The notes under the pieces: model-generated | Told to the model about the DNA's origin: nothing | The model's input: only the letters and a program-made list of their open reading frames with translations | The model's database searches: none | Source of the DNA: Candidatus Levyibacteriota bacterium | GTDB lineage: Bacteria; Patescibacteriota; Microgenomatia; Levybacterales; UBA12049 | Direction of reading: 5' to 3' | Length of the DNA stretch: 64,000 nucleotides | Assembly (NCBI GenBank): GCA_003152105.1 | Contig: PLZJ01000002.1 | Coordinates: forward strand, 753,713-817,712 | Part shown: positions 651 through 52,223 of the stretch, piece after piece | How the letters are laid out: the number at the start of each line of letters is the position of its first letter | Position numbering within the stretch: position 1 is the stretch's first letter | Position numbers and translations under genes: made by a program

Positions 651-722
651 GCGGTGGTAGTTCAGCGGTAGAATGTCTCCTTCCCAAGGAGAAGGTCGAG
701 GGTTCGACTCCCTTCCGCCGCT
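651..722 (+). tRNA. tRNA-Gly (anticodon CCC)
   Basis: The cloverleaf was folded by eye. The acceptor is GCGGTGG/CCGCCGC with discriminator U, the anticodon arm is TCTCC-TTCCCAA-GGAGA, and the T-loop is GGTTCGACTCC. Confidence 0.8.
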
Positions 723-744
723 CTTATTGACTACCCACAACAAT

Positions 745-1680
745 ATGAAAAACACCTATTTACTAATTATCCTATTAATTGTTATAGCTTTTTTTGGTGT
801 TTCAAGTAAATTTTTTAGAAATCAGAAACCAATTACCACTGTTATTAAATCTTCAGTTATAACAACTCATATCTCTAAAAATTTTTTAAAACCAACAATA
901 ACACCCATAGACCAAGAGTTATTCGGAAATGAAATAGCATTATCAGTATCACAACCGGCTGATAAATCTTCTGTGACGTCACAAAACATTGTTATTTCAG
1001 GAAAAACTGTGCCTGATGCAGACGTTTTTGTAAATGCAAATAATGTTAATGTAGATTCTTCAGGAATTTTTTCAACAAACATTTCTTTAAGTGAAGGTGA
1101 AAATAATATCTTTATTGATTCAAATGATGCTACAGGAAATACTAATGAAAAAATTATTTCTGTAAATTATTTGCCAACGATCGAGAGCACTTCAGCTATA
1201 TATTTACCAAATGTTAAGGTTGTAGCACTAGGTCTTTCTTCTATTAGCGTAAATAATAATTCAGCAACAGTAGTAATATCACCTAATTCTCAAACTATCT
1301 TTAAAAACAACTTCTGGGATCAAATACAATTCCAGAAAATTAGCATTGGTGATTTACTGAGTGTTTATGGACTGTGGGATGATGCTACGCATACTAAAAT
1401 CAATACCTCATTTATTAGAGATGATTCCATCACAACAAGAACCGCAGTTGTATACGGCGTAGTAGAACGTTCCAATGTAAATACTATGGAAATAGCAACA
1501 CGTACACTTGGAAATACATCAGTTCTTATTAGCAGTTCTATTATTTATTACAATTTACAGAATAAAATTATTTTATATAATCAGTTAGAAAAAAACGATA
1601 AGGTTAGAGTATCAGGGGTTTTAGATGCTGCAAACCATCAGATAAGCGCAGTAATGAATATTAAAGATTTTGCTAGGTAA
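745..1680 (+). CDS. membrane-anchored secreted hypothetical protein (Ig-like / OB-fold-rich)
   Basis: The ORF-track start (673) overlaps tRNA-Gly. The first ATG after the tRNA encodes MKNTYLLIILLIVIAFFGVSS, a signal/TM sequence. The rest is Ser/Thr/Asn-rich beta-type sequence with no enzymatic motif. Confidence 0.5.
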   Translation: MKNTYLLIILLIVIAFFGVSSKFFRNQKPITTVIKSSVITTHISKNFLKPTITPIDQELFGNEIALSVSQPADKSSVTSQNIVISGKTVPDADVFVNANNVNVDSSGIFSTNISLSEGENNIFIDSNDATGNTNEKIISVNYLPTIESTSAIYLPNVKVVALGLSSISVNNNSATVVISPNSQTIFKNNFWDQIQFQKISIGDLLSVYGLWDDATHTKINTSFIRDDSITTRTAVVYGVVERSNVNTMEIATRTLGNTSVLISSSIIYYNLQNKIILYNQLEKNDKVRVSGVLDAANHQISAVMNIKDFAR

Positions 1681-3807: not shown

Positions 3808-5208
3808 ATGTTAGATAAAAAAGTTAAAATCATTGCAACTATTGGCCCCTCATCTCAAAGTAGTGAAATGATTCAAGCATTAGCAGAAAAAGGTACAGAT
3901 ATATTCCGTATTAATTTATCTCATGCTACAGAAAATCAATTAAGCTCTGTAGTATCAAATGTTAGGCTTGCAGAGACTAAACTAAATAAGCATTTATCAG
4001 TATTAGTTGATTTACCTGGACCTAAGATTAGAATAGGTTCAGTTATTGATGGGGCAAGTCTTAAGATCGGAGATACACTTAAAATACATTATAAGGATAT
4101 ACAAGGTACAGAATCAGACACATCATTAAATTATCCATCTATTCTTAAAAATATAGCTCCAGGAACCATTATGTATATTGATGATGGAAATATAAAATTG
4201 CTAGCTGAAGAAAATAATAATGAATATGTAAGAGCAACAGTACTTGTTGGTGGACCGTTAATTTCATATAAAGGATTTTCTGCAGAAGGTATTTCATATA
4301 CTAAAAATGGTGTATCTGAAAACGACAAAAAAAGCATCGAGCTACTTTTAAAATATGATGTTGATGCAATCGCAATTTCTTTCACGCAATCTGCAGCTGA
4401 TGTTACAGACATTAAAAATTTACTTCCATCAAATTCCACAAAACTTCTAATTGCAAAAATTGAAACAGAAGCAGGAGTTGAAAATGCAGAGGAAATTTTA
4501 AAAGTAGCGGATGGATTAATGGTTGCAAGAGGAGATCTTGGTCTTTCAGTTCCATTTGCTACAGTACCAAATATACAAAAACAACTTATAAAATTATGTA
4601 ATAAAAAAGCTAAACCAGTAATAACTGCAACGCAAATGCTGGAATCAATGATAAATAAACCTCTCCCTACTCGTGCAGAAGTAACTGATGTAGCAAATGC
4701 AATTATTGACGGGACAGATGCAGTAATGCTGTCTGCTGAAACAACTATTGGAAAATATCCATTGGAATCTGTGGATACTTTAGTTAAAATAATTTTGGAA
4801 ACGTTAAAACACTCACTGTTTTCTGAAGAAAATGCTGATATTGAACTTGGCAATGCAGTTTCTCATGCAGCAGGTATAATCGCGGATCAAATCAACTCCA
4901 AATTAATTATCGCATTTACGCAAAGCGGAGTAACAGCACAAAGAATTGCCAAATATAGACATAAACAGCCAATAATTGCCGCCTCTCAAGAACTTTCAAC
5001 ACTTAGGAACTTAAATTTCAGTTGGGGAGTGTATCCATTTCAAATAAGTAAAACAGAAGGATTTTCAGATTTAAGAAAACAAGCGCTCGAAATTGTTACT
5101 AAAAATGAATTTGTTACAGTTGAGAAAAATGATACCTATGTTATTGCAGCAGGAATGCCTTTTGGTCAAAGTGGGACTACAAATATGATTTTTATAGATA
5201 AAGTCTGA
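3808..5208 (+). CDS. pyk: pyruvate kinase
   Basis: Motifs KIIATIGPSS, MVARGDLG and the KPVITATQMLESM family pattern are present at 466 aa. Confidence 0.9.
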   Translation: MLDKKVKIIATIGPSSQSSEMIQALAEKGTDIFRINLSHATENQLSSVVSNVRLAETKLNKHLSVLVDLPGPKIRIGSVIDGASLKIGDTLKIHYKDIQGTESDTSLNYPSILKNIAPGTIMYIDDGNIKLLAEENNNEYVRATVLVGGPLISYKGFSAEGISYTKNGVSENDKKSIELLLKYDVDAIAISFTQSAADVTDIKNLLPSNSTKLLIAKIETEAGVENAEEILKVADGLMVARGDLGLSVPFATVPNIQKQLIKLCNKKAKPVITATQMLESMINKPLPTRAEVTDVANAIIDGTDAVMLSAETTIGKYPLESVDTLVKIILETLKHSLFSEENADIELGNAVSHAAGIIADQINSKLIIAFTQSGVTAQRIAKYRHKQPIIAASQELSTLRNLNFSWGVYPFQISKTEGFSDLRKQALEIVTKNEFVTVEKNDTYVIAAGMPFGQSGTTNMIFIDKV

Positions 5209-10250: not shown

Positions 10251-10877
10251 TTACACTGTATTCTTTTTGGCTTGACGAATGTCCTTATCTTCAATAGTAC
10301 CATTTGAAGAGATTTTATACACATATACTTGGCCAGTACTTATTTCTAAATGAGCAATTTTATCATCAGGAATATGTTCTAAATATTTAACAATTGCACG
10401 TAGTGCATTACCTGAACTTACAACGAGTACATTATTTCCTTCCATAACTTGCTTTAGTATTGTGTCTTTAAAAAATGGTATTTCTCTTTCGTATACTTGT
10501 TTCAAGGATTCTCCCTCAGGTATAGGATAATCCCATGACCTTCGAAGAAGTAAAAAATTTTTTTCTCCAATCTCTTTTTCAATTTCCCATTTGTTTTTAC
10601 CGTTATAAACACCGTAGTTTCGCTCATTAATTCGCTTATCTACTATAGTTGGTAAATCTTTTTGTTTAATTTCTTTTTTAATCTCTTCTAATGTATCTAT
10701 TGCTCTTTTAAATACAGAAACGTAGGCTGTTGTAAAATGAATATCCTTCAATTCCTTTCCCGCACGTTTTGCTTCATCTATTCCGATTGAAGTTAACTCT
10801 GGATTATCCCATCCTGTCCACCAACCTTTTTGGTTATATGTCGATAAACCGTGTCTAACTAATACTAATAATCCCAT
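10251..10877 (-). CDS. gpmA: 2,3-bisphosphoglycerate-dependent phosphoglycerate mutase
   Basis: LVLVRHGLSTYNQKGWWTGWDNPELTSIGIDEAKRAGKEL matches the dPGM N-terminus (RHG...TGW). It belongs to the histidine phosphatase family. Confidence 0.8.
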   Translation of the reverse strand: MGLLVLVRHGLSTYNQKGWWTGWDNPELTSIGIDEAKRAGKELKDIHFTTAYVSVFKRAIDTLEEIKKEIKQKDLPTIVDKRINERNYGVYNGKNKWEIEKEIGEKNFLLLRRSWDYPIPEGESLKQVYEREIPFFKDTILKQVMEGNNVLVVSSGNALRAIVKYLEHIPDDKIAHLEISTGQVYVYKISSNGTIEDKDIRQAKKNTV

Positions 10878-10885
10878 AAAATTAG

Positions 10886-12139
10886 TTACGCTTTGTGAAG
10901 CTCTGAATATATTTCGAGTAATCTATTATATTTTACGACTCTTTCACCTCTGGCAGGTGCACCAAATTTAGTAAAATCTGAATTCACGGCAATTGCAAGA
11001 TCAGCAATAAAATCATCTGTTGTTTCTCCACTCCTATGAGAGATTATTGTTTTTATATTATTTTTTTTAGCAAGTTCAATAACTTGTAAGGTTTCAGTTA
11101 CGGTTCCAATTTGATTTACTTTAATTATAACTCCTGTTATTGCCTTTGCATTAATTGCTTTTTGCAGTAATGTACTATTAGTTGAAATTATATCATCACC
11201 AATAATTACACAAGATGCAGGTAAGGTTTTAGTTATTTTTGCAAAACTATCAAAATCTTCTTCATAAAACGGGTCTTCGAAGTAACGAAGTGGGTATTTC
11301 TCATAAATTGATTTATAGAATACTAATAATTCTTCTGGGGTTATTTTTTTACTTTCACTTTTTAAGTTATATATACCGTCATCATAAAAACTTGAAGCAG
11401 CAACATCCATACCAATTTCTACATCTTTTTGGAACACATATCCTGCTTTTTTAATTGCGAGTAACAAATAGTCCAGAGCTTCGGTGTTTTTTGAAAAATT
11501 TGGCGCAAAGCCGCCTTCATCTCCTAGTAAATTACTGAAGCTATTTTCATGCAAAAGTTTTTTAAGTTGTGTATATATGGTTACTGCTTGTTCTAAGGCT
11601 TTTGGGAATATTTTAGTAGTGGGTAAAATCATGAATTCTTGAAAGTCAATATTTCCACCAGCATGCATTCCACCATTTAAGATATTAAAAGCAGAGATTG
11701 GTTGTTCATAAGAGTCGTTATGTGAAGTTAGATTTCGTAAATATTTGTATAATGGAATTTTTTGCTCTTGAGCAGATACTCTTGCTAGTGCTAAAGAAAC
11801 CGGCAATATTGCATTAGCTCCAAGTTTCGTTTTATTCTCAGTACCATCAAGTTTATTCATTAATAAATCTAGTTCATTTTGATAAGAAGGATCTTTTCCT
11901 ATTAATGATGGACCAATCACTTCGTTAACATTTTCTACTGCTTGCAGCACTCCTTTTCCACCATAAACTGATCGATTATTATCTCTTAATTCTAAAGCCT
12001 CGTGTATAGAAACAGATGCACCGCTTGGACAAGATGCAACCGCGTTTATGTTCGTATCTAATGAAATTGTAACTTCTACAGTAGGGGTGGCTCTACTATC
12101 TAGTATTTGTCTTGCATGTATCGAAGTTATTTTAGCCAT
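10886..12139 (-). CDS. eno: enolase
   Basis: It starts MAKITSIHARQILDSRATPTVEV and is enolase-like along its full length. Confidence 0.9.
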   Translation of the reverse strand: MAKITSIHARQILDSRATPTVEVTISLDTNINAVASCPSGASVSIHEALELRDNNRSVYGGKGVLQAVENVNEVIGPSLIGKDPSYQNELDLLMNKLDGTENKTKLGANAILPVSLALARVSAQEQKIPLYKYLRNLTSHNDSYEQPISAFNILNGGMHAGGNIDFQEFMILPTTKIFPKALEQAVTIYTQLKKLLHENSFSNLLGDEGGFAPNFSKNTEALDYLLLAIKKAGYVFQKDVEIGMDVAASSFYDDGIYNLKSESKKITPEELLVFYKSIYEKYPLRYFEDPFYEEDFDSFAKITKTLPASCVIIGDDIISTNSTLLQKAINAKAITGVIIKVNQIGTVTETLQVIELAKKNNIKTIISHRSGETTDDFIADLAIAVNSDFTKFGAPARGERVVKYNRLLEIYSELHKA

Positions 12140-14363
12140 TTTTATCTAACAATTTGTGTTCGTAACTTGCAATAACTCTTCGGGTTTGTTGTAAATCCTC
12201 AGGAGGAACAGTTATGCTTGATATTCCACATTGTACCATAAATTCAATTCCCGCTAATGAGGATACAGATGAGGAAATGTAACATGTTTCAATCTTATGT
12301 TTTTGAGCAACTTCAATGCCTTGCGATAATAACCAATTTGTTGACTTATTTTGATCTGAAAATCCTTGTGATAATTCTAAATTGTTTTTATCTATTCCAA
12401 ACATAAGTGAGGATAATGTTGCAACATCAAAACTAACCCCATCGAGTCCAGAAGAAACGAACATATCCAACTCAGCGATATTTGCTGGAAGCTGTGCCAA
12501 TAGCCATATTTTGAATAATGGAGAACTTTGTAATCCATTTGCATAAAGAAGTTTTTTAATTGATTGAAATTCAGAAACTGTTCTTACAAAGGGCAGAAGA
12601 ACTCCGATATTTTTACCTGTTGCTCTTTTTCTAATTTCCTTAATTACATCGATTTCAATTTTTAACAAAATATTGTCATCCAAATAGCGAAGAGCACCTC
12701 TGTAGCCTAAAAATGGATTTTCTTCTACTTCTTCATATGCTTTTCCAAAAGAAAGAGTTCTAAGCTGTGAAGAAGTGAATTCAGAGAATTTATATAAAAC
12801 AGGCATGGGATAATATTGATCGCATAGATTTTGTAAGGTTTTTACCATTGTATTGATAATCACATTTCGATTCTCCTTTTTAAAAAGCTGTTTTGGATGA
12901 AGATTATATTGTTTAAAAAAGATTTCTCCATAAATAATACCGACTCCATCTGCATAAGGAACTGTTTCTTTATGAAAATCAGTTTTAGTTGATATAGTTG
13001 TAAGTAGTTTAGTAGCAGTTATCGAGTGACTTTTCGATAATTTACTAAAGTCAGCACTACCATGATAAACAGTGCCTTTTTGACCATCTACAAGCACTGC
13101 TTGACCAGTTTTTAGAATATCGAGTGCATTTTCAGAATTGGCGATGACAGGTACACCAATTTGTTTAAATAACAATTGAGTACTTGGAGAAGCTGCTTCT
13201 TCTACAATAATTGCATTTGCTTTCTTTAATACACTTGCAGTTTCTAAATCTATTTTTTGCGTTACTAACACATCACCTTGCTTTACTAAAGGTAAATCTT
13301 TTTTATTTTTAATAACTCGAACATTTCCTTTAATTATTCCAACTCCATGAGGAGTACCAACAAGGAGGGGTTTAAACGCATCATGCATGTCAGTTTTGCC
13401 AGTATTTTCAGATAGTTCTCTTGTGTTTAGAAGAAACAGTTTATTGTCTTCATACGCAAAAAAAGCTTCTTGTGGAAAGTAAAAGTGTTTTTCTAACTTT
13501 TTTGCCAGTAGCGCCACTTCAATAATTTGTTTATCGCTTAATTTTTGCTCATAGCTTTCCTCGGCTGTGAGGGTATTAATTTTTGTATGGGTGCCAATAG
13601 TTGACTGCATAACTTCTTGATTTGCAATTCTTTTTGTTTTAATTTCTAGCGATAACTTATCAACCTCATAATAATCGGTTTTTTCACCATGTAATATGTA
13701 TCCAGGTAGTCCATATGCTGCTTCTATGAGTATAAGCTTTTTATTGCTACTATCTGGATCTTTGGTAAATAGTCTTCCTGAAATATCAGCGTTTATTGAT
13801 GCTTGAACAATTGAAGCAAGAGAAAGTGTTTTGTAAGAGACTTTTTCTTCATTCATTCGAAGTAACATTGATGTATCAAAAAGTTTGGCAAAGCTTTCTT
13901 TAATTCTTTGCAGTAGGTTTGCATCACCAACAATTTGCATAAAACTACTGGTAGAATCTGATAGACGAAAAAGAGTATTTCTGTTGCCAATTGAAGCTGA
14001 TATAACATTAACCGATGGCAATGAATGCTGAGTATGAATTTTTTTGTATGCTTTAATTATCGATTCTGCTAATTCTTCCGGATAGGATGAATACAAAATA
14101 ATTTTTTTAATTGCTTGTGATACTTGCTCAACTGAGGAATGATCGGAATAGGTTATTGTTGATAGAAGATTATCAATTTTGGGTTTAAGCTTATTACTTT
14201 CAATAAACGTAAACCAAGCTGCAGTTGTTATAACAAACGCATTTGGCACGGTAATATCTGAAGCAAGCATACTTGCAAGGTGTAATCCATAAGTACCGGT
14301 CAGTTCTACGTCTTCTTTATCAATTTCTTTTAGCCACAATACAAATGGCTGTTTGGACAGCAT
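12132..14363 (-). CDS. phosphoenolpyruvate synthase-like protein (PEP-utilising enzyme architecture; phospho-His motif not conserved)
   Basis: It has a PPDK_N ATP-grasp N-terminus (VPNAFVITTAAWFTF; GRLFTKDPDSSN..ILIEAAYGLPGYILHGEKTDYYEVDK). The C-terminal TIM barrel carries ENPFLGYRGALRY and the Cys region CYISSSVSS. The central mobile domain reads AIIVEEAASPSTQLLFKQIGVPVIAN where [19 protein letters not shown] is expected. Confidence 0.6.
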   Translation of the reverse strand: MLSKQPFVLWLKEIDKEDVELTGTYGLHLASMLASDITVPNAFVITTAAWFTFIESNKLKPKIDNLLSTITYSDHSSVEQVSQAIKKIILYSSYPEELAESIIKAYKKIHTQHSLPSVNVISASIGNRNTLFRLSDSTSSFMQIVGDANLLQRIKESFAKLFDTSMLLRMNEEKVSYKTLSLASIVQASINADISGRLFTKDPDSSNKKLILIEAAYGLPGYILHGEKTDYYEVDKLSLEIKTKRIANQEVMQSTIGTHTKINTLTAEESYEQKLSDKQIIEVALLAKKLEKHFYFPQEAFFAYEDNKLFLLNTRELSENTGKTDMHDAFKPLLVGTPHGVGIIKGNVRVIKNKKDLPLVKQGDVLVTQKIDLETASVLKKANAIIVEEAASPSTQLLFKQIGVPVIANSENALDILKTGQAVLVDGQKGTVYHGSADFSKLSKSHSITATKLLTTISTKTDFHKETVPYADGVGIIYGEIFFKQYNLHPKQLFKKENRNVIINTMVKTLQNLCDQYYPMPVLYKFSEFTSSQLRTLSFGKAYEEVEENPFLGYRGALRYLDDNILLKIEIDVIKEIRKRATGKNIGVLLPFVRTVSEFQSIKKLLYANGLQSSPLFKIWLLAQLPANIAELDMFVSSGLDGVSFDVATLSSLMFGIDKNNLELSQGFSDQNKSTNWLLSQGIEVAQKHKIETCYISSSVSSLAGIEFMVQCGISSITVPPEDLQQTRRVIASYEHKLLDKNG

Positions 14364-14455
14364 ACAATTATTATCTAGACTTTTACTAGTTTCTGCAAGT
14401 GTTATTTATAGAAAACTTGCTTGACATGAGTAATGTATATTTATACAATCAGTTT

Positions 14456-14881
14456 ATGGAACCACAACCTAAAAAGATCTTAGTTGTAGAAGACGACGTC
14501 TTTTTAAGTGAAATTTATGTCGATACATTAACAAAAGAGGGATATAATATCGACCGAGCAATTGATGGTGAACAGGCAACACAAAAAATAAAACAAGGTG
14601 GATATGATTTAATACTTCTTGATATCATTATGCCAAAAATGGATGGCATTTCAGTAATGGAAAACTTAAAACAAGATCCTAGTTTTAAGTTAACCTGTCC
14701 GCTTGTATTTTTAACTAACTTGGATAATGAAGAGCAAATGAAAAAAGCATTATCTTTAGGAAACGGCTATTTAATTAAAAGCCTTATGACACCTGGTGAT
14801 TTAGTAACTGAAGTCAAACAATATCTTTCAATGCAATTTGCCCCTCTTACGCAGACGCCACCAACGACACAACAGAATTAG
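14456..14881 (+). CDS. stand-alone response regulator receiver (CheY-like)
   Basis: The receiver fold is KKILVVEDD...DLILLDIIMPKMDG...K with no output domain. The track start 14399 lies inside the promoter TTGACA(14421)-17-TACAAT(14444), and the ATG at 14456 sits exactly 7 nt after the -10, so the mRNA is leaderless. Confidence 0.7.
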   Translation: MEPQPKKILVVEDDVFLSEIYVDTLTKEGYNIDRAIDGEQATQKIKQGGYDLILLDIIMPKMDGISVMENLKQDPSFKLTCPLVFLTNLDNEEQMKKALSLGNGYLIKSLMTPGDLVTEVKQYLSMQFAPLTQTPPTTQQN

Positions 14882-16298
14882 TTATTGGAAATGTGCTTGC
14901 TTCAATCGTTTTTTGATCTTTTACTATTTTTAGACTAAACGAAAAAGTCGAACCTTTATCAATTTCTGAATTTACCCAAATTTTGCCTCCATGCATTTCA
15001 ATAATTGATTTAGTAATATATAATCCGAGACCAGTTCCTTCCATAGTAATCTTTGTTAAATAACTATCTCCAACACTGCTAAATTTTTGGAATAATTTAT
15101 CAAGATCTTCTTTTGTCATACCTTTTCCTGTATCGGTAAGATTTGTAATAATCATATCGTTTTCAATTTTAAAGGAAACAGTAATTGAACCACCAGGAGG
15201 AGTGAATTTAATTGAATTACCTGCTAAATTAATAAATACTTCTTTCATTTTATCTGGATCTGCCATAACTTGTATATTTTCTGCTCCACTTGCATCGACA
15301 TGTAGCGTAATTTGCTGACCAGATGCAAAAGGAGTAAGTTCTGTAAATGTGTCTTGTGCAAGTTTAGCTAAGTTAATTTCTTTTTGACGTATAACATAAC
15401 GACCAGCTTCAATTCTTGATACATTTAACATATCATTTACTAGATTAATTAATCTATTCGTAGCATCTAAGGCATGCTCAAGATAGGTAGTATCTTTTTC
15501 ACTTGGACTGCCATTCTTTTTATTCTCGAGATACATCCACAAATATGATTTTATAGCTGTCATTGGAGTTCGGAGTTCATGTGATGCTAAAGAAACAAAC
15601 TCATCTTTCATTTTATCAAGTTGTTTTAAGCGATCATTAGCATCCTCAATAGATTTATATAAAAGTGTATTGTCTAAAGAAATGCCAATAACACTACTTA
15701 GTCGCTTAATTAAATCTTGTGAATAAATATCAATAGATGCTTCATCTTGTGCCAAACTTATAATTAATATACCAAAACATTGACCACGAATTACAAGTGG
15801 ATATACTACCGTTGATTTAATTTGAAGAATCGAAGCAAATGTATCAATATTTTTTTTATTTTCAAAAGTAGCAAATACATCTAAAAGCGTATTTGTAATA
15901 TATGCCCGTTTAGTTCCTAATGCTTTAACGAGAAGATTATTGGTACTTGAAAAAGGCATAGAAGTAACATAAATAGGTAATACGTCATTTAACTTAGCTT
16001 GAATTTGCTCATCTAAATGAGAAAAAGCTATTTGCTCTAAAGAATTTAATTTAGAATTTGATAAATATATTGAAGCTGTTACAAAATCGGAATTTTCTAT
16101 TACCGCATCTACAATACTTTTTGCAACCTGCATGACATCTGTTATGGAGTTAAGTGTAATTTCATCAATCTTTCTAAGCAAAGTTAATGTTTTATTTGTT
16201 TGAGATAACTCATAATTTTTTTTATACATTTCTTCTGTAATATGAGTTAAATCATTAGCTACAGAATTATCAGATTTTGAAGAATTATTGGGATCCAT
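14847..16298 (-). CDS. soluble sensor histidine kinase (GAF-HisKA-HATPase)
   Basis: The H-box HELRTPMTAIKSY is followed by N/G boxes (GTGLGLYITKSI) and preceded by an N-terminal GAF-like region. No TM segment is present. The 3' end overlaps the convergent receiver gene by 35 nt. Confidence 0.75.
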   Translation of the reverse strand: MDPNNSSKSDNSVANDLTHITEEMYKKNYELSQTNKTLTLLRKIDEITLNSITDVMQVAKSIVDAVIENSDFVTASIYLSNSKLNSLEQIAFSHLDEQIQAKLNDVLPIYVTSMPFSSTNNLLVKALGTKRAYITNTLLDVFATFENKKNIDTFASILQIKSTVVYPLVIRGQCFGILIISLAQDEASIDIYSQDLIKRLSSVIGISLDNTLLYKSIEDANDRLKQLDKMKDEFVSLASHELRTPMTAIKSYLWMYLENKKNGSPSEKDTTYLEHALDATNRLINLVNDMLNVSRIEAGRYVIRQKEINLAKLAQDTFTELTPFASGQQITLHVDASGAENIQVMADPDKMKEVFINLAGNSIKFTPPGGSITVSFKIENDMIITNLTDTGKGMTKEDLDKLFQKFSSVGDSYLTKITMEGTGLGLYITKSIIEMHGGKIWVNSEIDKGSTFSFSLKIVKDQKTIEASTFPITNSVVSLVASA

Positions 16299-16321
16299 TA
16301 TTTAATTATATACTTAAGAAT

Positions 16322-16600
16322 TTATTTGAGTAAAGATGGCACTTGCTCTTGAGGTAACTTTGAAAGAATATCTTTTGCAGCATGCCTACAAACTTCTACT
16401 GAGGTCTGTCCAAAAATAATTTCGTATTTTGCGACCAATTTTTCAAGAATTTCTTTTTCATTTCCTGTTAATGCTACCTCATTATTGCTTACATTAATCT
16501 TTAAGCCAGATATTTTTTGAGCTTGTTCTAACGCAATAGGTCCTATTATGCCCTCTTGAGCTTTTATTATTTTTAATACTGCTTGTGAATATACATCCAT
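16322..16600 (-). CDS. small hypothetical protein (92 aa), cotranscribed with the kinase
   Basis: The ORF lies 23 nt upstream of the kinase and 2 nt downstream of the membrane protein. I recognise no family. Confidence 0.4.
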   Translation of the reverse strand: MDVYSQAVLKIIKAQEGIIGPIALEQAQKISGLKINVSNNEVALTGNEKEILEKLVAKYEIIFGQTSVEVCRHAAKDILSKLPQEQVPSLLK

Positions 16601-16601
16601 A

Positions 16602-17426
16602 TTATGACTCCCTATATTCCTTTAAAGCGGTAAATAGTTGAAAAATTCCAAAACCAAGTAAAGTGTAAGAAACGGCATATATATAATCTAAAATACTTCC
16701 AGGATAATAAGTATTTTGAAAAATAACAAAACAATATTCAGCTAAAAATTGAGCCACAAACGCTATAATTATAAATAGTATTTTACTTCGCATTAATCCT
16801 CCAAGGCTATTTCTAGTAAGTGAATAAGTTAGTAGTGCAATAGAAATATAAATTATCGGACCTGTTGGATAACCATAATTTAGAAATGTTTCAACAGGGT
16901 GCTTAAAATCTATAGAATAATTTTTTAAAACGAGCCAGTAAGAAACTACCAAAATTATTAGAGGAATAAAAATAACTTGTACTTTAGAACTTATTGAGTT
17001 TAAGGAAAATCTTACACCTGAAGCTTCTGCTAATAAGATTATGCCATAAATATAAAAAGGGATAGTACCAAAAAAACCAATATCTCCAATTGAAGGATAC
17101 GGTACAGCTATATGTAATACAAAAATATAATAACTATATGCAAGTTGTCCAAATTCTTGAAATAGTAAGCCAAATGAAAACATGATTATGGCTCTTCCCA
17201 TTAAACTTCTCCAACCACCCCATGATTTGGCAATAGAGAATCCAAATAATGCTGACCATGCAGCTATTACGCCATATAAATTGCCGAAATACCCAAAAGC
17301 AGAGAAAGGATTTTCACTTTGACTCTTATTTAGAAAAAAGGTTAAATAAAGCCACCAAATACTAAAGAAAATAAATAAACCCACTAATACTTTTGCTGGC
17401 CAATAATATTTTATAGTTTTTAACAT
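16602..17426 (-). CDS. polytopic membrane protein (candidate membrane sensor partner)
   Basis: About 8 hydrophobic helices run throughout. It is the first gene of the membrane protein/small protein/kinase string. Confidence 0.5.
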   Translation of the reverse strand: MLKTIKYYWPAKVLVGLFIFFSIWWLYLTFFLNKSQSENPFSAFGYFGNLYGVIAAWSALFGFSIAKSWGGWRSLMGRAIIMFSFGLLFQEFGQLAYSYYIFVLHIAVPYPSIGDIGFFGTIPFYIYGIILLAEASGVRFSLNSISSKVQVIFIPLIILVVSYWLVLKNYSIDFKHPVETFLNYGYPTGPIIYISIALLTYSLTRNSLGGLMRSKILFIIIAFVAQFLAEYCFVIFQNTYYPGSILDYIYAVSYTLLGFGIFQLFTALKEYRES

Positions 17427-17498
17427 ATAGTACTATATAAGCAAAGCACAGTATGCATAACTTGTCAATATTCATCCTAATCGGTTACAATAAATAAA

Positions 17499-18461
17499 AT
17501 GATTGACACAATTGATCCTGACAATCAACTTGCAATAAACAATTTAAACAACAAATATCCAGAATTCCCAAACTCCAAAAAATTGGAATTCCAGGACAAA
17601 GAGTTAATAGAAAAACTCTTACTTAACTTTCCACCCTATTCTGATTTTAACTTTTTAAGTTTATGGAGCTATAACACAAAGGATGATATAGAATTTTCAA
17701 TACATAACAATAATATAATTTGTAAAATGAGAGACTATATCACTGGCGAATTTTTTTATACGTTTGCTGGATCAAATTCTCCATTTTCAACAATAGAAAC
17801 AATATTTAAATACTTACAAGAACATAAATTACCGTTACTTTTAAAGATAGTTCCGGAAACAAGTATTGACCAAATCCAAGTAAAGCAGAGATTTAATATT
17901 ATTGAGGATAGAGATCAATTTGATTATATTTACTCTATTGAGGGCTTCGCGAACTTAAAAGGAGGAGATAATGTTAAAATTCGAAATTATTGCAATAGAT
18001 TTAAAGAACTTTATTCAACTATTAACCAAAAAACTTTAGATCTATCTAATTTAAACGATCAAGTAATTTTTTTATCAATATTTGACAGATGGAGACAATT
18101 TAAAAATCAAGATAAAGAAGCAATTACCGAAAGACTTGCCCTAGAAAGACTTTTTCAAATATCAAGTCAGGTTGATAATTTATATAATATTGTATTGTAT
18201 GACGTTGATAAGCCAATAGGTTTTTTTATCGGGGAACAATGTAAATCAGAATATGCGATCAGCCATTTTGCTAAAGCTGATTCTCAAAATTACCATGGCA
18301 TCTATGCTTACTTATATCATAAATCTTCAATGGATTTATTCAATCTTGGTTATAAATATGTTAATTATGAGCAAGATTTAGGCATTCCAGGGTTAAGAAG
18401 ATCCAAAGAGCAAATGCACCCTGTTTACTTTTTAAAAAAGTATTCTATTTCACCTTCTTAG
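17499..18461 (+). CDS. hypothetical protein, DUF2156-like (GNAT-fold, MprF C-terminal-like)
   Basis: The pattern NFPPYSDFNFLSLWSYN...NIICKM...FAGSN resembles the DUF2156 N-terminal half, and FFIGEQ...HFAKAD is acyltransferase-like. The call rests on memory of the family pattern. Confidence 0.35.
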   Translation: MIDTIDPDNQLAINNLNNKYPEFPNSKKLEFQDKELIEKLLLNFPPYSDFNFLSLWSYNTKDDIEFSIHNNNIICKMRDYITGEFFYTFAGSNSPFSTIETIFKYLQEHKLPLLLKIVPETSIDQIQVKQRFNIIEDRDQFDYIYSIEGFANLKGGDNVKIRNYCNRFKELYSTINQKTLDLSNLNDQVIFLSIFDRWRQFKNQDKEAITERLALERLFQISSQVDNLYNIVLYDVDKPIGFFIGEQCKSEYAISHFAKADSQNYHGIYAYLYHKSSMDLFNLGYKYVNYEQDLGIPGLRRSKEQMHPVYFLKKYSISPS

Positions 18462-19056
18462 TTATTGTATTTTTCTTTTTAAATAAAATTCCAATTTTGT
18501 ATTGTACTAAAACATAAACTAATACGTTTATTATTAAATAATATAAAGGGAAAGTAATGTTAGCGAAGTTAGAGTTTTTTATAGTTAACAAAGTAATAAA
18601 ACCACTAGATCCAGCCGCTAGCCATGGCCAAGCACTTTCAGTTTGTGGTTTATTGTATGATTTTACAAGTGTTGGCACATATGCTGCTGCGTCAGCTAGA
18701 ATACTAAACATAATTGCTATGTTGCCATTGTTGGTAATATACCAAAGTATAATTCCAAGTATCGAAAAAAATGCACAAATAATATCTAACTTTTGAATTT
18801 TTGCATAGGATTTCTTGTTAATAAAAGTGGCTAAGAACACAAAAAAGGGAATTAATCCTACACTTAGGGGCATTATTGCTTGAAATCCTACTCCCTGATT
18901 TAACTCTGCAAAAAATGTAATAATAGGAGGAATTGACCAAAGAAAAAAAGATACTCTGTTTGGTTGAATTTTACCTTTTATCGTATCATTTACATAACTA
19001 ATAAATCCAAGAAGGTTTAGAGCAATGCCAACATAAATGAAATTGGGGTTTAACAT
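18445..19056 (-). CDS. hypothetical integral membrane protein
   Basis: It has 6 predicted TM helices and no motif. Confidence 0.4.
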   Translation of the reverse strand: MLNPNFIYVGIALNLLGFISYVNDTIKGKIQPNRVSFFLWSIPPIITFFAELNQGVGFQAIMPLSVGLIPFFVFLATFINKKSYAKIQKLDIICAFFSILGIILWYITNNGNIAIMFSILADAAAYVPTLVKSYNKPQTESAWPWLAAGSSGFITLLTIKNSNFANITFPLYYLIINVLVYVLVQYKIGILFKKKNTITKKVK

Positions 19057-41777: not shown

Positions 41778-42809
41778 ATGCCAAGAGAATTTGGTCCTGC
41801 AATTACTAGTATTGGGAAGGGATTACCCGAACATGCGTTTAGCAATCAACAAATAATTGATGATTTCGGCGTTGATAGTTCTGATGAATGGATAAGAACC
41901 AATGTCGGCATCAAGCAACGATATATTGCAGGCCCTGAACAAGCAACTTCTGATTTCGCAGTTGCTGCGGCAACAAATGCACTTGAACGTGCCCGTTTAA
42001 AAGCATCTGATATAGATCATGTTATCGTAGCTACTGCAACGCCCGATTATCTATTTCCTTCAACTGCAGTACTTGTACAAGATCGTTTAGGCGCAAATGC
42101 AGGCGCACATGATGTAATGGCCGCATGTACAGGAGGTATTTATGCACTTGCAGATATGTGTTCTATGCATGAAGCCGATTTAATCGAAATTAACAAGTCG
42201 CTAGTTATTGGAGCTGAAACTCTTACTAGGCATGTTAATTGGGAAGATAGGGGAACTGCAGTTTTATTTGGCGATGGAGCAGGTGCAGTAGTTATTGAAA
42301 ATATTCCAAATCCTGGACTTATGAAATTTGTTCTTGGTGCTGATGGGTCACAAGCGAAAAGTTTATATATACCCTCAGGTGGAAGTCGGAATCCTATTAC
42401 AGAACAAGTACTAGAAGAAGGTAATGATGCAATTATTATGAATGGGCCAAAAACATTTAAACATGCTGTTAACCGAATGAGTGAAGCGGCTGAAGAAGTA
42501 ATGCAAAAAGCACATTTAACAGATGCGTTAGGAAATATTGATACAAGACATATAGATCATGTTATCCCACATCAAGCAAATGTTAGAATTATGAATGCAG
42601 TATGGAATCGTTTTGGTCTGCCAGTCGAAAAAAGAGTATCGAAAATTGAAAAATATGGAAACACATCTGCTGCTTCTATTTTTATAGCAATGAATGATGC
42701 ATATGAAGATGGGACCATAAAAAAAGATGACGTATTACTACTTGTGGCATTTGGCGCTGGTTTTACGTATGGAGCAGCTGTTTTACAATGGCAATTAGAA
42801 AATAAATAG
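41778..42809 (+). CDS. fabH: 3-oxoacyl-ACP synthase III (FabH-like KAS III)
   Basis: SDEWIRTNVGIKQRYIA is present, with Cys in AACTGGIYAL, His in VIPHQANVRI and Asn in GNTSAASIFIA. The catalytic triad is complete. Confidence 0.75.
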   Translation: MPREFGPAITSIGKGLPEHAFSNQQIIDDFGVDSSDEWIRTNVGIKQRYIAGPEQATSDFAVAAATNALERARLKASDIDHVIVATATPDYLFPSTAVLVQDRLGANAGAHDVMAACTGGIYALADMCSMHEADLIEINKSLVIGAETLTRHVNWEDRGTAVLFGDGAGAVVIENIPNPGLMKFVLGADGSQAKSLYIPSGGSRNPITEQVLEEGNDAIIMNGPKTFKHAVNRMSEAAEEVMQKAHLTDALGNIDTRHIDHVIPHQANVRIMNAVWNRFGLPVEKRVSKIEKYGNTSAASIFIAMNDAYEDGTIKKDDVLLLVAFGAGFTYGAAVLQWQLENK

Positions 42810-42818
42810 TGCTATTTA

Positions 42819-43676
42819 TTACGAAACAAATATATCTTTATTTGCTTGTCTTTTTCCGACAAGTTGCATCCAGTCTCTTGGAAATGATTCTAGTTTTCCT
42901 GCCTTTTTCAATTTAACAAACATTTCATGTGCCGATTCTCTTAATACTTTTCTCGCCACTTCAACTGGAACTCCCGGCAATGTTCCTCCTGCAAAATCAG
43001 CATAATCACAAATTGCATCTACGTCACCCTCGTTCATTTCCACAGCTACTGTTTCTGCTGCAACATCAGTAATTCCTTTTGCTCTTGCAATTCCTACATA
43101 CTCTTCTTGCGTATGTTTAAAATAATTAAGAGGCTTTCCAGGAGAGTATCCCAAAGCTTGTGCTTTTTGTTTACCTAGAACCGCAAGTTCTCCCCATACT
43201 CGTGCTCTATTTCTTGGTGTATTTATATATCCACAACTTATGACAATTACTCCATCAGGACGTAATACACGAGCTGTTTCTTCAAATGCTTCTTCCACAT
43301 CGGTTAAGTGAATACTATTTGCAAAAACGACTACATCAAATTTACCGTCTTCTGCTGGAATTTCTTCAGCTTTACCAACTGCGAATGTTACCTCAGGACG
43401 AAAAGCAAATTTACGCCTTGTTGAAGCAATTGCACTTTCATCTGGATCTACTTCAAGAATTGTCCCACCTGCCAATACTTTATCCTCCTCTAGCAAGAGT
43501 TCAGTCATTGCTCCTTTTCCAGATCCAAGATCTAGTATATGTAGCGCTTGAGGAGCAAGTTGAATAGTCTGTCGATTAATTTCTCTATAAAAACGACGTC
43601 TAGTAAATCGCTCATAAGTATGATCAAAATCAGTAGGAACAGGTGGTGGTGTTTGATGTGTTTGTTCTGGGCTCAT
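42819..43676 (-). CDS. class I SAM-dependent methyltransferase
   Basis: Motif I ILDLGSGKGAMTELL is followed by the post-I acidic ILEVD and motif II FDVVVFANSIH. Confidence 0.65.
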   Translation of the reverse strand: MSPEQTHQTPPPVPTDFDHTYERFTRRRFYREINRQTIQLAPQALHILDLGSGKGAMTELLLEEDKVLAGGTILEVDPDESAIASTRRKFAFRPEVTFAVGKAEEIPAEDGKFDVVVFANSIHLTDVEEAFEETARVLRPDGVIVISCGYINTPRNRARVWGELAVLGKQKAQALGYSPGKPLNYFKHTQEEYVGIARAKGITDVAAETVAVEMNEGDVDAICDYADFAGGTLPGVPVEVARKVLRESAHEMFVKLKKAGKLESFPRDWMQLVGKRQANKDIFVS

Positions 43677-43797
43677 AATTAATTTAGACTGATAATAGTA
43701 GCTTTATCAATGGAAGTCAACAACTATTCCTTGAAAGATCTTGCAAAATAAAATAAAAACTGCTATTGTCTCAAAAGATTAGATCAACTCAACAATA

Positions 43798-45324
43798 ATG
43801 AATAAATCTGCAGAATATCTTGAAGCAAGAGCAGAAACATTGGGTGCACATCTTCATAAAGAACCTTCAAGTGGCGTTTCGATTACTGGATATGCTGCAT
43901 TAACTCCACTTGGTGACACGCAGGAAACTTTTGAAGGAATGTTAAATGGGCAGTCAGGTGTGGTTGAATTTGATGCAAATAATTTTGCGGTAAATGTAGC
44001 AGCACCTGTAAAACATTTCGACCCACTAGAACATTTTGATAGACGCGCACTCCGAGGTGTATCGTACGTTACTGCAATGGCTGATGTATTAACACAAAGA
44101 GCTGCCTTAGATGCTGGACTTATTCAGAGCACAAATGAAATGTTGGGCGACGAATTACCAAGTGGACAGAAACAAGATAGACATAAAATAGGAAGCTCAA
44201 TTGGAAGTGGCATTGGTCCAACCCCTAATATATTACGTATTTATCAACAATTATATAAAGATGTTGAAGGATTGGAAAGTAAATTAAGGCAAACAATTAA
44301 TCCTGAAGAAAGAAGTGAATTAGAAGGTGAAATAAAAGCAAAAATTAGAAAAAACTCTGAAAGAGTAGGACCATTGTGGGGACTGGAAATGTTCCCTGAA
44401 GAAGTAAATTCAGATCCATCTATGAAACTTGGTTATTCTGGACCAGGTATTAGCGATACTGCAGCATGTGCGACTGGACTTTCAAATGCAGTCGAATCTG
44501 TTCGAAAAATAAAAGAAGGTGAAAGTGAAAAAGATTTTGGTGGAGGTGTAGAAGCTATCTTAACTGATCCAAATAATATTCATATTGGTGACATTGGAAT
44601 TGCGTCATTTGCAGCACTTCGCCTTGTGCTTTCTACAGAATATTTTAATATTTTAAAGAAAACAATAACTAGTCCTGAAGAATCTAGCCGGCCTTATGAT
44701 CGAAATAGAGATGGATTTGTTCTGGGCGAAGGTGGAGCAGTTGTTTTATTTGAAAGATCTGATTTAGCAGCAGCAAGAGGAGCAAACGTACATGCAGAAG
44801 TTGTCGGATACAGTAAATCACTGGATGGTAAAGGTCAAACAGATTTGGATGTTGATAATGTTGCAAGAACTATTCTTGAAGCGTGCGAAAACCGTTGGAC
44901 TTATGAAATAGAAGTTCCTGATGTTATATTTGCCCATGCAACAGCTACAAAATCTGGCGACAGAGCAGAGGCAAAAGCATTGTATAAAGCATTTGGAAAG
45001 TTACTGCAAGACATTCCCATTACTGCAAATAAAAGTAATATCGGTCATTTAGCTGGAGGAGCGGGAAGTGTAAATCTAGCAATGGCGATAGAAGCACTTC
45101 GCCAACAACAAATTCCTCATATTTTAAATTTAGTTAATCCTAGATTAAATTTAGAAAATCCGGAAGAAGAAGATGATGAAGAAATAAACCATGTCGTTTT
45201 TGTTAGAAATGAGCCGCTTAAAGGAAACTTTCAAAAAGCACTTATACTTGGGTATGGTTTCGGGGGAAATAATGCTGCAATGTTGATTAGAAGACCAAAG
45301 CTTCATAACTTACTAGTTTATTAG
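43798..45324 (+). CDS. beta-ketoacyl-ACP synthase I/II-like ketosynthase (FabF/FabB family) with insertions
   Basis: The N-terminus VSITGYAALTPLGDTQETFEGMLNGQSGV leads to the active-site Cys DTAACATGL, then HATATKSGD and NIGHLAGGAG, a CHH triad. At 508 aa it carries a charged insert and an acidic C-terminal stretch EEEDDEE. Confidence 0.7.
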   Translation: MNKSAEYLEARAETLGAHLHKEPSSGVSITGYAALTPLGDTQETFEGMLNGQSGVVEFDANNFAVNVAAPVKHFDPLEHFDRRALRGVSYVTAMADVLTQRAALDAGLIQSTNEMLGDELPSGQKQDRHKIGSSIGSGIGPTPNILRIYQQLYKDVEGLESKLRQTINPEERSELEGEIKAKIRKNSERVGPLWGLEMFPEEVNSDPSMKLGYSGPGISDTAACATGLSNAVESVRKIKEGESEKDFGGGVEAILTDPNNIHIGDIGIASFAALRLVLSTEYFNILKKTITSPEESSRPYDRNRDGFVLGEGGAVVLFERSDLAAARGANVHAEVVGYSKSLDGKGQTDLDVDNVARTILEACENRWTYEIEVPDVIFAHATATKSGDRAEAKALYKAFGKLLQDIPITANKSNIGHLAGGAGSVNLAMAIEALRQQQIPHILNLVNPRLNLENPEEEDDEEINHVVFVRNEPLKGNFQKALILGYGFGGNNAAMLIRRPKLHNLLVY

Positions 45325-46971
45325 CTTAGGAATAATTGATCGCTTTACTACAGTCGCTTGCAAATCTTTTATGCCTCCGATAATTGTTCCTTCAGAAGAA
45401 ATAACGATATTACTACCAAATGTGCGTTTATCTAATTGAACAGTTTCTGCGTCATAACAAATTCCATCTCCAGCTCTGACTGTATGATTATCAAAAAAAT
45501 CTGTTTCCCCAATTCTTAAAAATAATGGCATTACATTTGTATCAATTTTTTCAAGATGAACAATGCCAGCTGCTTGGGCAGCACCTTCTATCAACTGATC
45601 TTCAAGTAAAGCAACAACTTCATCATTAGTAACTTGCTTAACCTTTAATCCTTTAATGCTCGCAGTAATTTTATTGTCATGTTCTCGAATTATAGAAACA
45701 TTATATGTGCCATCATCACAGAGCTGCGGTTCAACCCGCAATACTGTTTTTCCATCAGCAGATACAATTTCTTTAAACTCAACTTCTCTAAAGCCTACTA
45801 ACTTAAGATTTCCATCTCCTAATCCTAAATGAGATGAAATTAAGCCAATTGTTTCAATTGCTGCTCTAATTTGTTTGTGTCCTGGAAGTATTTTTGGCAA
45901 TCCACTTTCTGGAGCAAAATGCCCTTCTGCTAATAACTGATCAACATGAACGACACCATAATATGCGCTAGGATCGCCTTCTTTTTGTTTTACCGTTGTC
46001 ACAAGTTGCTGATCATTTTCTCTTGTGACTTGATTTTTTGTTGCTATTGCTCTTCCAATTCCAGATTTTCTATCTTCATCTTGATTATTTCTTTCCATAG
46101 TTTGTACGTAAACCTGTTGTGTTCCATACCACTGCTCAAGCATTGTTTGCGCATCTTCGATATCATTAAAAAATTCAGTATAACCGCTTGGAACTGATGG
46201 ATTTTTTAATAAAGCGATAACTTTTTCTCCTACCTCTGATGTTGGTACAGTTCTTGGGAGTCCAAGTTTATCCGATATAACATTATGCATATCCTCCGCA
46301 GAATACTGACCATTTGACTCTCTTTTTGCTGCTATATTAAATACCATAACATTTGCAGTATCTGGTACGATTGGTGGCGTTACTTCTAAAAATCGTATAC
46401 CCCGCTCTGCCATTTCTGCTTGTCGCTTATGAAGTGATTGTAAATCTTCATATTTGTGTCTGGCAACATTGTCGTATTGTGAAACTATTGATATGGCACC
46501 TCTGAGTTGTGGGTCAAAATGACCTGGCACACTTTGCAATCTAATGATTACACCTCCGTCATTCATGATAGGCAAAAATTGAGTTACTAAATCATTTGAA
46601 GCGTCACTGTTTAGCGCTTGAGTTGATCCAGATGTTACAAGAACTACATAATCTACTTTACCATTAAGCTTTTCTGCTGCTTCTTGAAATAACTGCTTTC
46701 TCCCTTCAGAAGTCGACATATCAGCAGATAAACCATAAGCTGTACCATTATTTTCTGAAACATCATGCAGCACCGTATTTGCCCGCTTTTGCTTATCTCT
46801 AAATGAAAATGCTACCGTTACTTTTTCAGCTGCCAATGCTTTAACGATTGCAGCTCCAATATCTCGATTACCACCAGATACAAAAGCGGTCTTGTCAACT
46901 AAAGAAAGTTCACGATTTATCTGCCTGTCTTGTATTATTTGATCTAATGTTACTGCTTGTTCTGGACTCAT
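45313..46971 (-). CDS. fusion protein: N-terminal SDR with Y-x6-K (enoyl-reductase-like FabI/FabL spacing) + FabZ-like hot-dog dehydratase + extra C-terminal region
   Basis: The N-terminal Rossmann fold has AFVSGGNRDIGAAIVKALA and YDNVARHK (Tyr-x6-Lys). The middle has HFAPESGLPKILPGHKQIRAAIETIGLI, matching the FabZ GHFP...PG...EA.AQ pattern. Total length is 552 aa. Confidence 0.5.
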   Translation of the reverse strand: MSPEQAVTLDQIIQDRQINRELSLVDKTAFVSGGNRDIGAAIVKALAAEKVTVAFSFRDKQKRANTVLHDVSENNGTAYGLSADMSTSEGRKQLFQEAAEKLNGKVDYVVLVTSGSTQALNSDASNDLVTQFLPIMNDGGVIIRLQSVPGHFDPQLRGAISIVSQYDNVARHKYEDLQSLHKRQAEMAERGIRFLEVTPPIVPDTANVMVFNIAAKRESNGQYSAEDMHNVISDKLGLPRTVPTSEVGEKVIALLKNPSVPSGYTEFFNDIEDAQTMLEQWYGTQQVYVQTMERNNQDEDRKSGIGRAIATKNQVTRENDQQLVTTVKQKEGDPSAYYGVVHVDQLLAEGHFAPESGLPKILPGHKQIRAAIETIGLISSHLGLGDGNLKLVGFREVEFKEIVSADGKTVLRVEPQLCDDGTYNVSIIREHDNKITASIKGLKVKQVTNDEVVALLEDQLIEGAAQAAGIVHLEKIDTNVMPLFLRIGETDFFDNHTVRAGDGICYDAETVQLDKRTFGSNIVISSEGTIIGGIKDLQATVVKRSIIPKLIN

Positions 46972-46975
46972 ATTG

Positions 46976-47872: not shown

Positions 47873-47952
47873 ATATTAGTTTTGAAAATGATACTACTGA
47901 GTAATAGTTGAGTCAATATGTAGTTTTATAAAAAATTGACAAGCTATTTTCA

Positions 47953-51162: not shown

Positions 51163-51255
51163 CTGTTCACAAACTCAACTTATTTGATTATTTCTCTTGT
51201 AATTTGGTTGACATGCAAGATATTTTGATCTAGACTCAAAAAAGAAAGAATATAC

Positions 51256-52140: not shown

Positions 52141-52223
52141 ATTGGTGGGTCAACTCTTTTCCTAAAACTAGAATCTTAGCAGTTATTGAAGAAGATGGAG
52201 ATCAATATGGATTTAAATATGCC

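Follow-up and report, generated by a model that had tools for sequence, protein, structure and literature searches.

A putative phosphoenolpyruvate synthase-like pseudoenzyme encoded directly before enolase in a Levybacteria-type genome

The 64-kb stretch under study (the window), part of a genome of about 1.15 Mb from a Candidatus Levyibacteriota bacterium, carries on its minus strand, at positions 12132 to 14363, an uninterrupted open reading frame (ORF) with an ATG start that encodes a protein of 743 amino acids. Three Pfam domains, family scores and gene order identify it as derived from ppsA, the gene for phosphoenolpyruvate (PEP) synthase. Most of the residues of the three active sites of PpsA are replaced in this protein, and it should be labelled a 'PEP synthase-like pseudoenzyme' and not a working PEP synthase. 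The gene is referred to below as pseudo-ppsA.

The three Pfam matches all lie above the gathering scores and stand in the canonical order of PpsA and pyruvate phosphate dikinase (PPDK): PPDK_N at residues 21-324 (159 bits), the PEP-utilizers mobile domain (PF00391) at residues 361-430 (31.7 bits) and PEP-utilizers_C at residues 445-734 (92.8 bits). This is the domain order that an earlier note on the same DNA had claimed. On the basis of alignments, together with the PF00391 match for the swivel, the minus-strand gene can be divided into: an N-terminal ATP-grasp-like domain (residues 1-325; 13389..14363), which superposes on 5hv6 and has lost its nucleotide/Mg site; a homolog of the swivel (phospho-His) domain (residues 335-440; 13044..13361) that lacks the histidine; within the latter, the former phospho-carrier loop AASPSTQ (residues 390-396; 13176..13196), which replaces GGxT(S/C)HA; and a C-terminal homolog of the PEP-binding TIM barrel (residues 445-743; 12135..13031), which superposes on the C-domains of 8a8e and 9dae. 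The top NCBIfam models are two PEP synthase equivalogs, and the protein scores below the cut-offs of both (418.7 versus 598 for NF005057; 388.5 versus 739.75 for TIGR01418). Its nearest solved relatives in phmmer searches are the PEP synthases 8a8e, 9dae and 2ols (E = 5e-83 to 3e-61).

The extent of the loss was assessed with a table of 17 positions, spread across the ATP-grasp, swivel and PEP-binding domains, at which the canonical relatives show no variation: K of GGK; R of VRSS; E and D of AED; D and E of QDxEW; Q and R of QxR; T and H of TxH; R of LGxRG; R of PFVR; E of ExP; N and D of SND; R of DRD; and C of CGQ. Established knowledge of PPDK, PpsA and Enzyme I assigns these positions to the active sites. 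The consensus pattern KREDDEQRTHRRENDRC reads YINREFNRPTRRQATKI in the 743-residue protein; 14 of these 17 catalytic or ligand-binding positions carry a different residue, the exceptions being R315, R555 and R594. Seven of the eight ATP-grasp residues are changed (K to Y25, R to I121, E and D to N127 and R128, D to E299, E to F301 and Q to N313; R315 is kept), and the corresponding motifs read GTY for GGK, VISASIGNRN for VRSSATAEDL and QEAFF for QDxEW. In the swivel loop the regulatory Thr is replaced alongside the deletion of the histidine. The PEP-binding domain has QLP for ExP, VAT for SND, DKN for DRD and YISS for ICGQ, with E changed to Q624, N to A648, D to T649, R to K659 and C to I696, which removes the Mg ligands and the acid/base Cys; the motifs ENPFLGYR555G and LPFVR594 are retained. 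The earlier note had named both ENPFLGYRG and a Cys region as conserved C-terminal motifs. The former is indeed present at residues 547-555; the latter is not, as the catalytic Cys column holds Ile696 and Cys694 stands two residues upstream. The same note was right that the histidine is gone but understated the damage, which extends to three domains. With the residues for each of the three partial reactions gone, the sequence predicts that the protein cannot interconvert pyruvate and PEP.

The replacement of GGRTSH by AASPST, which the earlier note had read from the string LKKANAIIVEEAASPSTQLLFKQIGVPVIAN (residues 379-409, as found in the protein), is borne out by four independent alignments (GGxTxH to AASPS-T). 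In the phmmer alignment to solved PpsA structures the histidine of GGRTSH lies opposite a one-residue gap in EEAASPS-TQLLF; in two MAFFT alignments, one with 16 homologs and one with 95, the His column has no histidine in this protein; and hmmalign to a hidden Markov model of the canonical orthologs, the profile alignment that could have placed a conserved histidine at the catalytic position, puts Thr395 there. The AASPSTQ loop carries a one-residue deletion at the His position. A PROSITE-type pattern for the phosphorylation site matches 89 of 96 relatives and not this protein. The absence of the phospho-carrier histidine would preclude phosphotransfer by the canonical mechanism, as the earlier note had argued.

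Two ways of rescuing the histidine were considered and rejected. The other reading frames of the loop region, searched for a hidden motif, contain many stops and no GGxTxH, which rules out a motif masked by a compensated frameshift. The only histidines within the swivel domain are H339 and H434; both occupy columns that vary among homologs, and H434 is three residues from the inter-domain linker, whose residues 437-445 are modelled with low confidence (predicted local distance difference test, pLDDT). The proposal that the carrier function has passed to a different residue, for instance H434 in TVYHG, is untenable because a swivelling histidine would have to reach both the ATP-grasp site and the PEP site, and neither of these survives.

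When genomes were scanned with one representative per species, 80 loci related to the window were recovered, nearly all from Levybacteria and Gottesmanbacteria (Microgenomates, within the candidate phyla radiation (CPR)). The window and these loci share the order PMM-PGI-[ppsA]-eno-(gpm = dPGM)-TP-methylase-VTT-LexA-UvrB-...-L19-CTP synthase. Because this gene order is conserved in about 80 loci, pseudo-ppsA is the positional, vertically inherited ortholog of the canonical Levybacteria/Gottesmanbacteria ppsA. Its neighbours have diverged at the usual rate: UvrB, LexA and TP-methylase are 68%, 71% and 54% identical between the window and canonical loci, which equals the identities of canonical loci to each other. 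The PpsA homolog of the window, in contrast, is only 33% identical to canonical orthologs that share 60-67% among themselves, and its ratio of PpsA to UvrB identity is 0.48 versus 0.89-0.99 in canonical loci. Judged by this relative-rate control, the source organism is an ordinary member of its clade, and the divergence and degeneration are specific to the pseudo-ppsA gene and not genome-wide.

The gene is followed immediately by enolase (10886..12139, minus strand; TIGR01060, 507 bits versus a cut-off of 300). The pseudo-ppsA stop overlaps the enolase ATG by 8 nucleotides (ATGGCTAA), and eno lies directly after ppsA in about 70 of the 80 related loci. A gene for a phosphoglycerate mutase of the 2,3-bisphosphoglycerate-dependent type (dPGM) lies downstream in the same direction (10251..10877, minus strand; TIGR01258, 171 bits versus 82). 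Because of the overlap and the recurrent gene order, pseudo-ppsA and enolase are probably co-transcribed and translationally coupled, and the pseudoenzyme is probably made together with enolase and dPGM. An intact pyruvate kinase gene (pyk) is found at 3808..5208 on the plus strand (TIGR01064, 457 bits versus 306). The glycolytic surroundings described in the earlier note are thus real, with eno, the dPGM-type mutase and pyk all scoring above their NCBIfam cut-offs. The window enolase itself shows a mean identity of 46.5% to the clade, versus 54-60% among canonical loci, and passes its equivalog cut-off; the enolase beside the degenerate ppsA of locus L073 is likewise low (40.9%). No second copy of ppsA or PPDK was found within the 64-kb window.

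Several observations bear on whether the reading frame and the fold have been maintained. When a canonical ppsA was drifted neutrally with the base composition of the window to a comparable divergence, the simulated genes acquired 23-28 stop codons and none of 100 runs was stop-free; the five other frames of pseudo-ppsA contain 35-75 stops. The G+C contents at the three codon positions (0.45/0.33/0.20) are indistinguishable from those of neighbouring genes. Among 159 columns that are at least 95% conserved in 86 canonical relatives, the protein keeps 47% overall, with 67% of Gly/Pro, 43% of hydrophobic and 38% of polar columns retained but only 3 of the 17 catalytic positions. The difference between Gly/Pro and the rest (67% versus 40%) is significant (p = 0.002), as is that between catalytic positions and the rest (p = 0.01). 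Since Gly and Pro codons are GC-rich and the genome is 32% GC, this preferential retention runs opposite to what mutation pressure alone would produce. The alignments contain few indels over the 743 residues and the changes are spread along the full length. An AlphaFold2 model has a mean pLDDT of 81, with low values limited to linkers and to two degenerated catalytic loops (residues 126-132, the former RSSATAEDLP loop, below 50; and about 391-400, at 55). Foldseek matches the model best to PpsA 2ols (E = 1e-50); its C-terminal domain superposes on 8a8e and 9dae with template modelling (TM) scores of 0.92 and 0.86 (root-mean-square deviation 1.8 A), and its N-terminal domain on the ATP-binding domain of rifampin phosphotransferase (RPH) 5hv6 with a TM score of 0.89. 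Taken from sequence and model together, these results indirectly suggest that frame and fold are still under purifying selection.

Degenerate PpsA homologs are not limited to the window. An exhaustive profile search against 1.84 billion cluster representatives, with clusters drawn at 50% identity and the hits then scored at the 17 sites, gave 71 full-length clusters of about 740 amino acids (all about 700-800) with at least 8 of the 17 sites changed. This count inflates prevalence, since rapidly evolving sequences are divided among many clusters; of the 80 loci that each represent one species, only about 4 have a degenerate ppsA. The histidine is retained in only 25 of the 71 clusters, and about 80 columns, many of them polar, are still at least 80% conserved among them. 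The earlier note had suggested checking whether the loss of the histidine is lineage-wide. It is not, since most orthologs of the clade keep it, although independent losses have taken place in a minority of other lineages.

The individual homologs differ in how far the loss has gone. L006 (the same protein as cluster P0002) has His replaced by Leu plus a few other changes; in L073 the same His to Leu change accompanies a degenerate PEP domain; in L049 the ATP-grasp domain is degenerate and the Cys has become Phe; and P0003 retains the histidine, having lost the N-terminal motifs and the Cys. Two metagenome loci encode truncated homologs with only the ATP-grasp and swivel domains (L083:5986-7371, 462 amino acids; L084:5998-7329, 444 amino acids), whose phospho-carrier loops, SSTPAAN and GEKNTY, respectively, lack the histidine. 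Both stand at the ppsA position, L083 directly before enolase and L084 directly before dPGM, and L084 is akin to L049 by its UvrB and LexA (81% and 79%). Marker similarities of this kind suggest at least three separate degenerate lineages, namely the window, the L049/L084/L073 group and L006. Because the order of domain loss differs between lineages, the losses appear to be repeated events. A comparison of shared derived residues gave no clear kin for the 743-residue protein: of its 97 derived states, no more than 16 recur in any other degenerate protein.

Sixteen clusters have Arg replaced by Pro in the DRD motif (P0032, P0046, P0069, P0083, P0090, P0094, P0099, P0112, P0120, P0125, P0154, P0155, P0156, P0158 and P0171, plus L073). 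Many of these share a C-domain pattern in which Glu of ExP becomes Asp, Asn of SND becomes Asp, its Asp becomes Ser or Asn and the Cys becomes Tyr, Phe or Thr, and some (P0155, P0032 and L073) have an intact ATP-grasp site. These clusters could represent a subfamily with a re-modelled C-domain site and not random decay. The protein of the window lacks the recurrent D-D-[SN]-P pattern and falls outside this group.

Some further homologs were noted during the survey. P0030, P0068, P0107, P0151 and P0013 are long proteins (1,150-1,220 amino acids) with an apparent non-His residue at the His column and all other catalytic sites intact. P0013 carries the intein-splicing Pfam domain PF14890, and these proteins probably hold inteins next to the catalytic histidine that break the alignment, in which case they are not true losses. 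At the Levybacteria-type locus L045 (3727-6000) two separate ORFs (residues about 2-436 and about 471-738) make up the ppsA ortholog, owing either to genuine pseudogenization or to a frameshift in the assembly.

Pyruvate kinase is patchily distributed in CPR, about one third of whose genomes carry it, and it has been suggested that PEP synthase stands in for it (PMC7304191); according to work cited in PMC8100219, operation of PEP synthase in the glycolytic direction is established in Thermococcus. We compared those loci that have at least about 1.9 kb of sequence beyond uvrB, comprising three degenerate loci (window, L049 and L073) and 20 canonical ones. Each of the three degenerate loci has a pyk gene between uvrB and rplS, as against only one of the canonical loci (Fisher p = 0.002); the window, L004, L049 and L073 are the only comparable loci with pyk at this position. 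The simplest scenario for these observations is one in which PpsA would be the enzyme connecting PEP and pyruvate in most relatives. In lineages that carry pyk, that of the source organism included, PpsA would be redundant and selection on its catalysis relaxed, and its active sites would then erode. The protein would nevertheless persist because of a non-catalytic role, with its gene heading the eno-gpm operon and its translation coupled to that of enolase. The nature of this role is the weakest step of the scenario; it would most likely be that of a structural or ligand-binding partner in lower glycolysis, for instance one sensing phospho-carboxylates. A structural or metabolite-binding role is favoured because NPxLGxRG is retained with its arginine, R555. 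In PPDK and Enzyme I the arginine of this motif binds the phosphate of PEP.

We favour, with moderate confidence, the reading that this PpsA was made redundant by pyruvate kinase and is now kept as a non-catalytic pseudoenzyme. The earlier note had left open a pseudo-enzyme or regulator on the one hand and the use of a different residue on the other; pseudo-enzyme is the best description, and the different residue finds no support.

The strongest competing explanation, credible though in our view unlikely, is that the protein is a functionless, decaying relic whose frame stays open only since stop codons would be polar on the essential enolase or uncouple its translation. The 8-nucleotide overlap of the pseudo-ppsA stop with the eno ATG is what such an explanation requires, and it fits with the much faster divergence from canonical orthologs (33% identity where 60-67% is expected), with loss patterns that vary by lineage while truncated versions, too, terminate immediately ahead of eno or gpm, and with the lack of an identifiable new conserved site. 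However, avoidance of stops alone leaves amino acid change neutral, and yet Gly and Pro are the best retained residues. Codon-position GC periodicity equal to that of neighbouring genes, the paucity of indels over 743 residues, the confidently predicted domains, and the roughly 80 columns, many polar, that 71 independent clusters keep at 80% conservation or more also argue against a relic.

It is also conceivable, but improbable, that the protein is still an enzyme, either through catalytic residues that have migrated (for example H434 or H339) or through a new reaction in the TIM barrel. The predicted fold is intact, R315, R555, R594 and the ENPxLGxRG motif are kept, and the recurrent D-D-[SN]-P pattern of other degenerate homologs hints at selectable new C-domain sites. 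Against this, three active sites have been hit together, with both sets of Mg ligands among the 14 replaced positions; the H339 and H434 columns are variable and H434 adjoins the linker; the D-D-[SN]-P pattern is absent from this protein; and the small share of derived states it has in common with any other degenerate protein (at most 16 of 97) comes with no conserved new motif. That assembly, binning or sequencing errors produced a spurious divergent gene, as might be feared of a singleton cluster from a metagenome assembly, has a negligible probability, given that two sources record the identical protein, on contigs of 1.14 Mb and 1.15 Mb, that synteny around the gene is perfectly conserved, and that the gene has no frame disruptions, a composition like that of its neighbours and changes along its whole length with no local patch.

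Several points weigh against the preferred reading of a retained, non-catalytic pseudoenzyme. In no collection searched does the protein have a relative closer than 36% identity, and hence no dN/dS is available: the best match of a word-indexed protein search was 36%, a scan of metagenome contigs for close relatives gave only the two distant truncated homologs, and the exhaustive profile search of the 1.84 billion representatives gave nothing above about 35%. The association with pyk comes from 23 phylogenetically non-independent loci and concerns one chromosomal position, and genomes scored as pyk-negative could carry the gene elsewhere. A second functional ppsA or PPDK may likewise lie elsewhere in the genome of about 1.15 Mb, beyond the window. 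Some of the catalytic-site identities (such as the Arg of PFVR) come from motif conservation and the literature. The non-catalytic function is deduced solely from maintenance of the ORF and the fold, and no conserved novel surface was identified on the protein. Finally, the truncated homologs L083 and L084 imply that some lineages can do without the C-terminal domain, which weakens the idea of PEP sensing.

No nameable enzyme describes how the protein would work, although by descent it belongs with PpsA. Set beside known systems, the protein is most like PpsA (EC 2.7.9.2; NF005057, TIGR01418; 2ols, 8a8e, 9dae), with which it shares three domains in the same order, a full-length alignment, the position upstream of eno, superposable folds and the NPxLGxRG and PFVR motifs. 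It differs from PpsA in the deleted histidine and the replaced regulatory Thr, in the replacement of the ATP-grasp Lys, Arg and acidic residues, the Mg ligands of the PEP domain and the Cys, and in its scores below both equivalog cut-offs and its 33% identity to orthologs that otherwise share 60-67%. PPDK (EC 2.7.9.1; 1dik, 1kbl) has the same swivelling-domain architecture and homologous catalytic motifs (K22, R337, T453, H455), and structures of its K22A, R337A and T453A mutants (1jde, 2dik, 1ggo) are among the Foldseek matches, but it is more distant (12-14% identity in the structure search) and the protein of the window lacks the equivalents of K22, T453, H455 and the PEP site. Rifampin phosphotransferase and PEP-synthase-like proteins of ATP-grasp plus swivel type (5hv1, 5fbs; NF041857) resemble it in the N-terminal ATP-grasp domain (E about 1e-35; TM 0.89); these proteins, however, have their substrate-binding domain in the middle and their His domain at the C terminus, keep the histidine and have no PEP-binding TIM barrel. 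An identity of this type was rejected, as PEP-utilizers_C occupies residues 445-734, the swivel is central and the RPH models match only residues of about 7-317. The C-terminal PEPut domain of pyruvate kinases from Bacillus, Geobacillus and Staphylococcus (2e28, 3t05), which came up among the matches to solved structures, is another swivel homolog outside the dikinase cycle; it is fused to pyruvate kinase, whereas here the swivel homolog lies inside a full-length PpsA scaffold. Pseudoenzymes in general are homologs deficient in catalysis that are retained as regulators or scaffolds (PMC5106787, PMC10211241). The protein is like them in that catalytic motifs are missing while fold and reading frame are maintained, and unlike them in that its role is putative, suggested by sequence and a model. 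Full-text literature searches found no description of a catalytically dead PpsA or a PpsA-derived pseudoenzyme, in CPR or elsewhere.

Upstream of pseudo-ppsA, an approximately 8-kb block (14399-19056 region) is inserted between PGI and ppsA in the window, compared with the common gene order. It contains a stand-alone receiver-domain protein (14399..14881, plus strand), divergently oriented and 35 bp from the pseudo-ppsA start, an adjoining histidine kinase with HisKA and HATPase_c domains (14847..16298, minus strand), LPG_synthase_C and other genes. A receiver gene is found upstream in several degenerate loci (window, L006, L073, L084, L086 and, at -1.6 kb, L049). A functional link between pseudo-ppsA and the receiver and kinase was considered and rejected, as a receiver also lies upstream in the canonical loci L028 and L081; the arrangement is taken as a lineage-specific rearrangement. 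For the degenerate homologs P0002 and P0046 (L001:1-7967; L086:1-5933) the divergent upstream neighbour is a pair of Hpt and receiver genes that heads a type IV pilus-like cluster (T2SSE, T2SSF, pilin). The minus strand between 14364 and 14400 has TTGCAG-17 nt-GATAAT ending about 6 nucleotides before the pseudo-ppsA ATG, with no Shine-Dalgarno sequence visible, and the transcript may be leaderless. Elsewhere in the window, a tRNA-Gly(CCC) at 651-723 (plus strand) overlaps the first 51 nucleotides of a listed ORF of 335 amino acids (673-1680, plus strand), whose true start is probably further downstream, and the region 42000-56000, where several very long ORFs lie (1,069 and 1,053 amino acids), has a G+C content of 0.36-0.38 versus about 0.32 elsewhere.

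A broader and more tentative interpretation, which we regard as possible but somewhat doubtful, is that dead PpsA homologs, full-length and sometimes truncated, form a widespread and long-maintained class in Microgenomates, and possibly in DPANN archaea, with a conserved non-catalytic job, for example partnering enolase and lower glycolysis as a sensor of phospho-metabolites or as a scaffold. In Nanobdellota (DPANN), 'PEP synthase' (K01007) is reported to be retained in about 90-100% of genomes without glycolysis, a retention for which the preprint offers no explanation (10.64898/2026.05.13.725050). P0023, a protein of 436 amino acids from Candidatus Woesearchaeota that consists of just the ATP-grasp and swivel domains, is likewise without the histidine, and the K01007 genes of those Nanobdellota genomes may deserve a check of catalytic integrity.

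Pipelines based on domain content and KEGG-style metabolic reconstructions will call pseudo-ppsA a PEP synthase, and this wrong call would add to the organism a gluconeogenic step from pyruvate to PEP or a step from PEP to pyruvate and ATP. Our analysis indicates that, within the visible region, only pyruvate kinase can link PEP and pyruvate. With about 70 clusters showing the same erosion, the problem extends beyond one genome, and catalytic-site checks are needed before PpsA is scored as present in CPR. If dead PpsA homologs do form a maintained class, calls of 'PEP synthase present' in CPR and DPANN reconstructions would be systematically unreliable. The homologs also provide a natural series, from loss of one residue through total loss to truncation, of an enzyme with three active sites decaying after its replacement by pyk while frame and fold are kept, and degenerate PpsA is thus a good system for asking about non-catalytic roles of proteins in ultra-small genomes.

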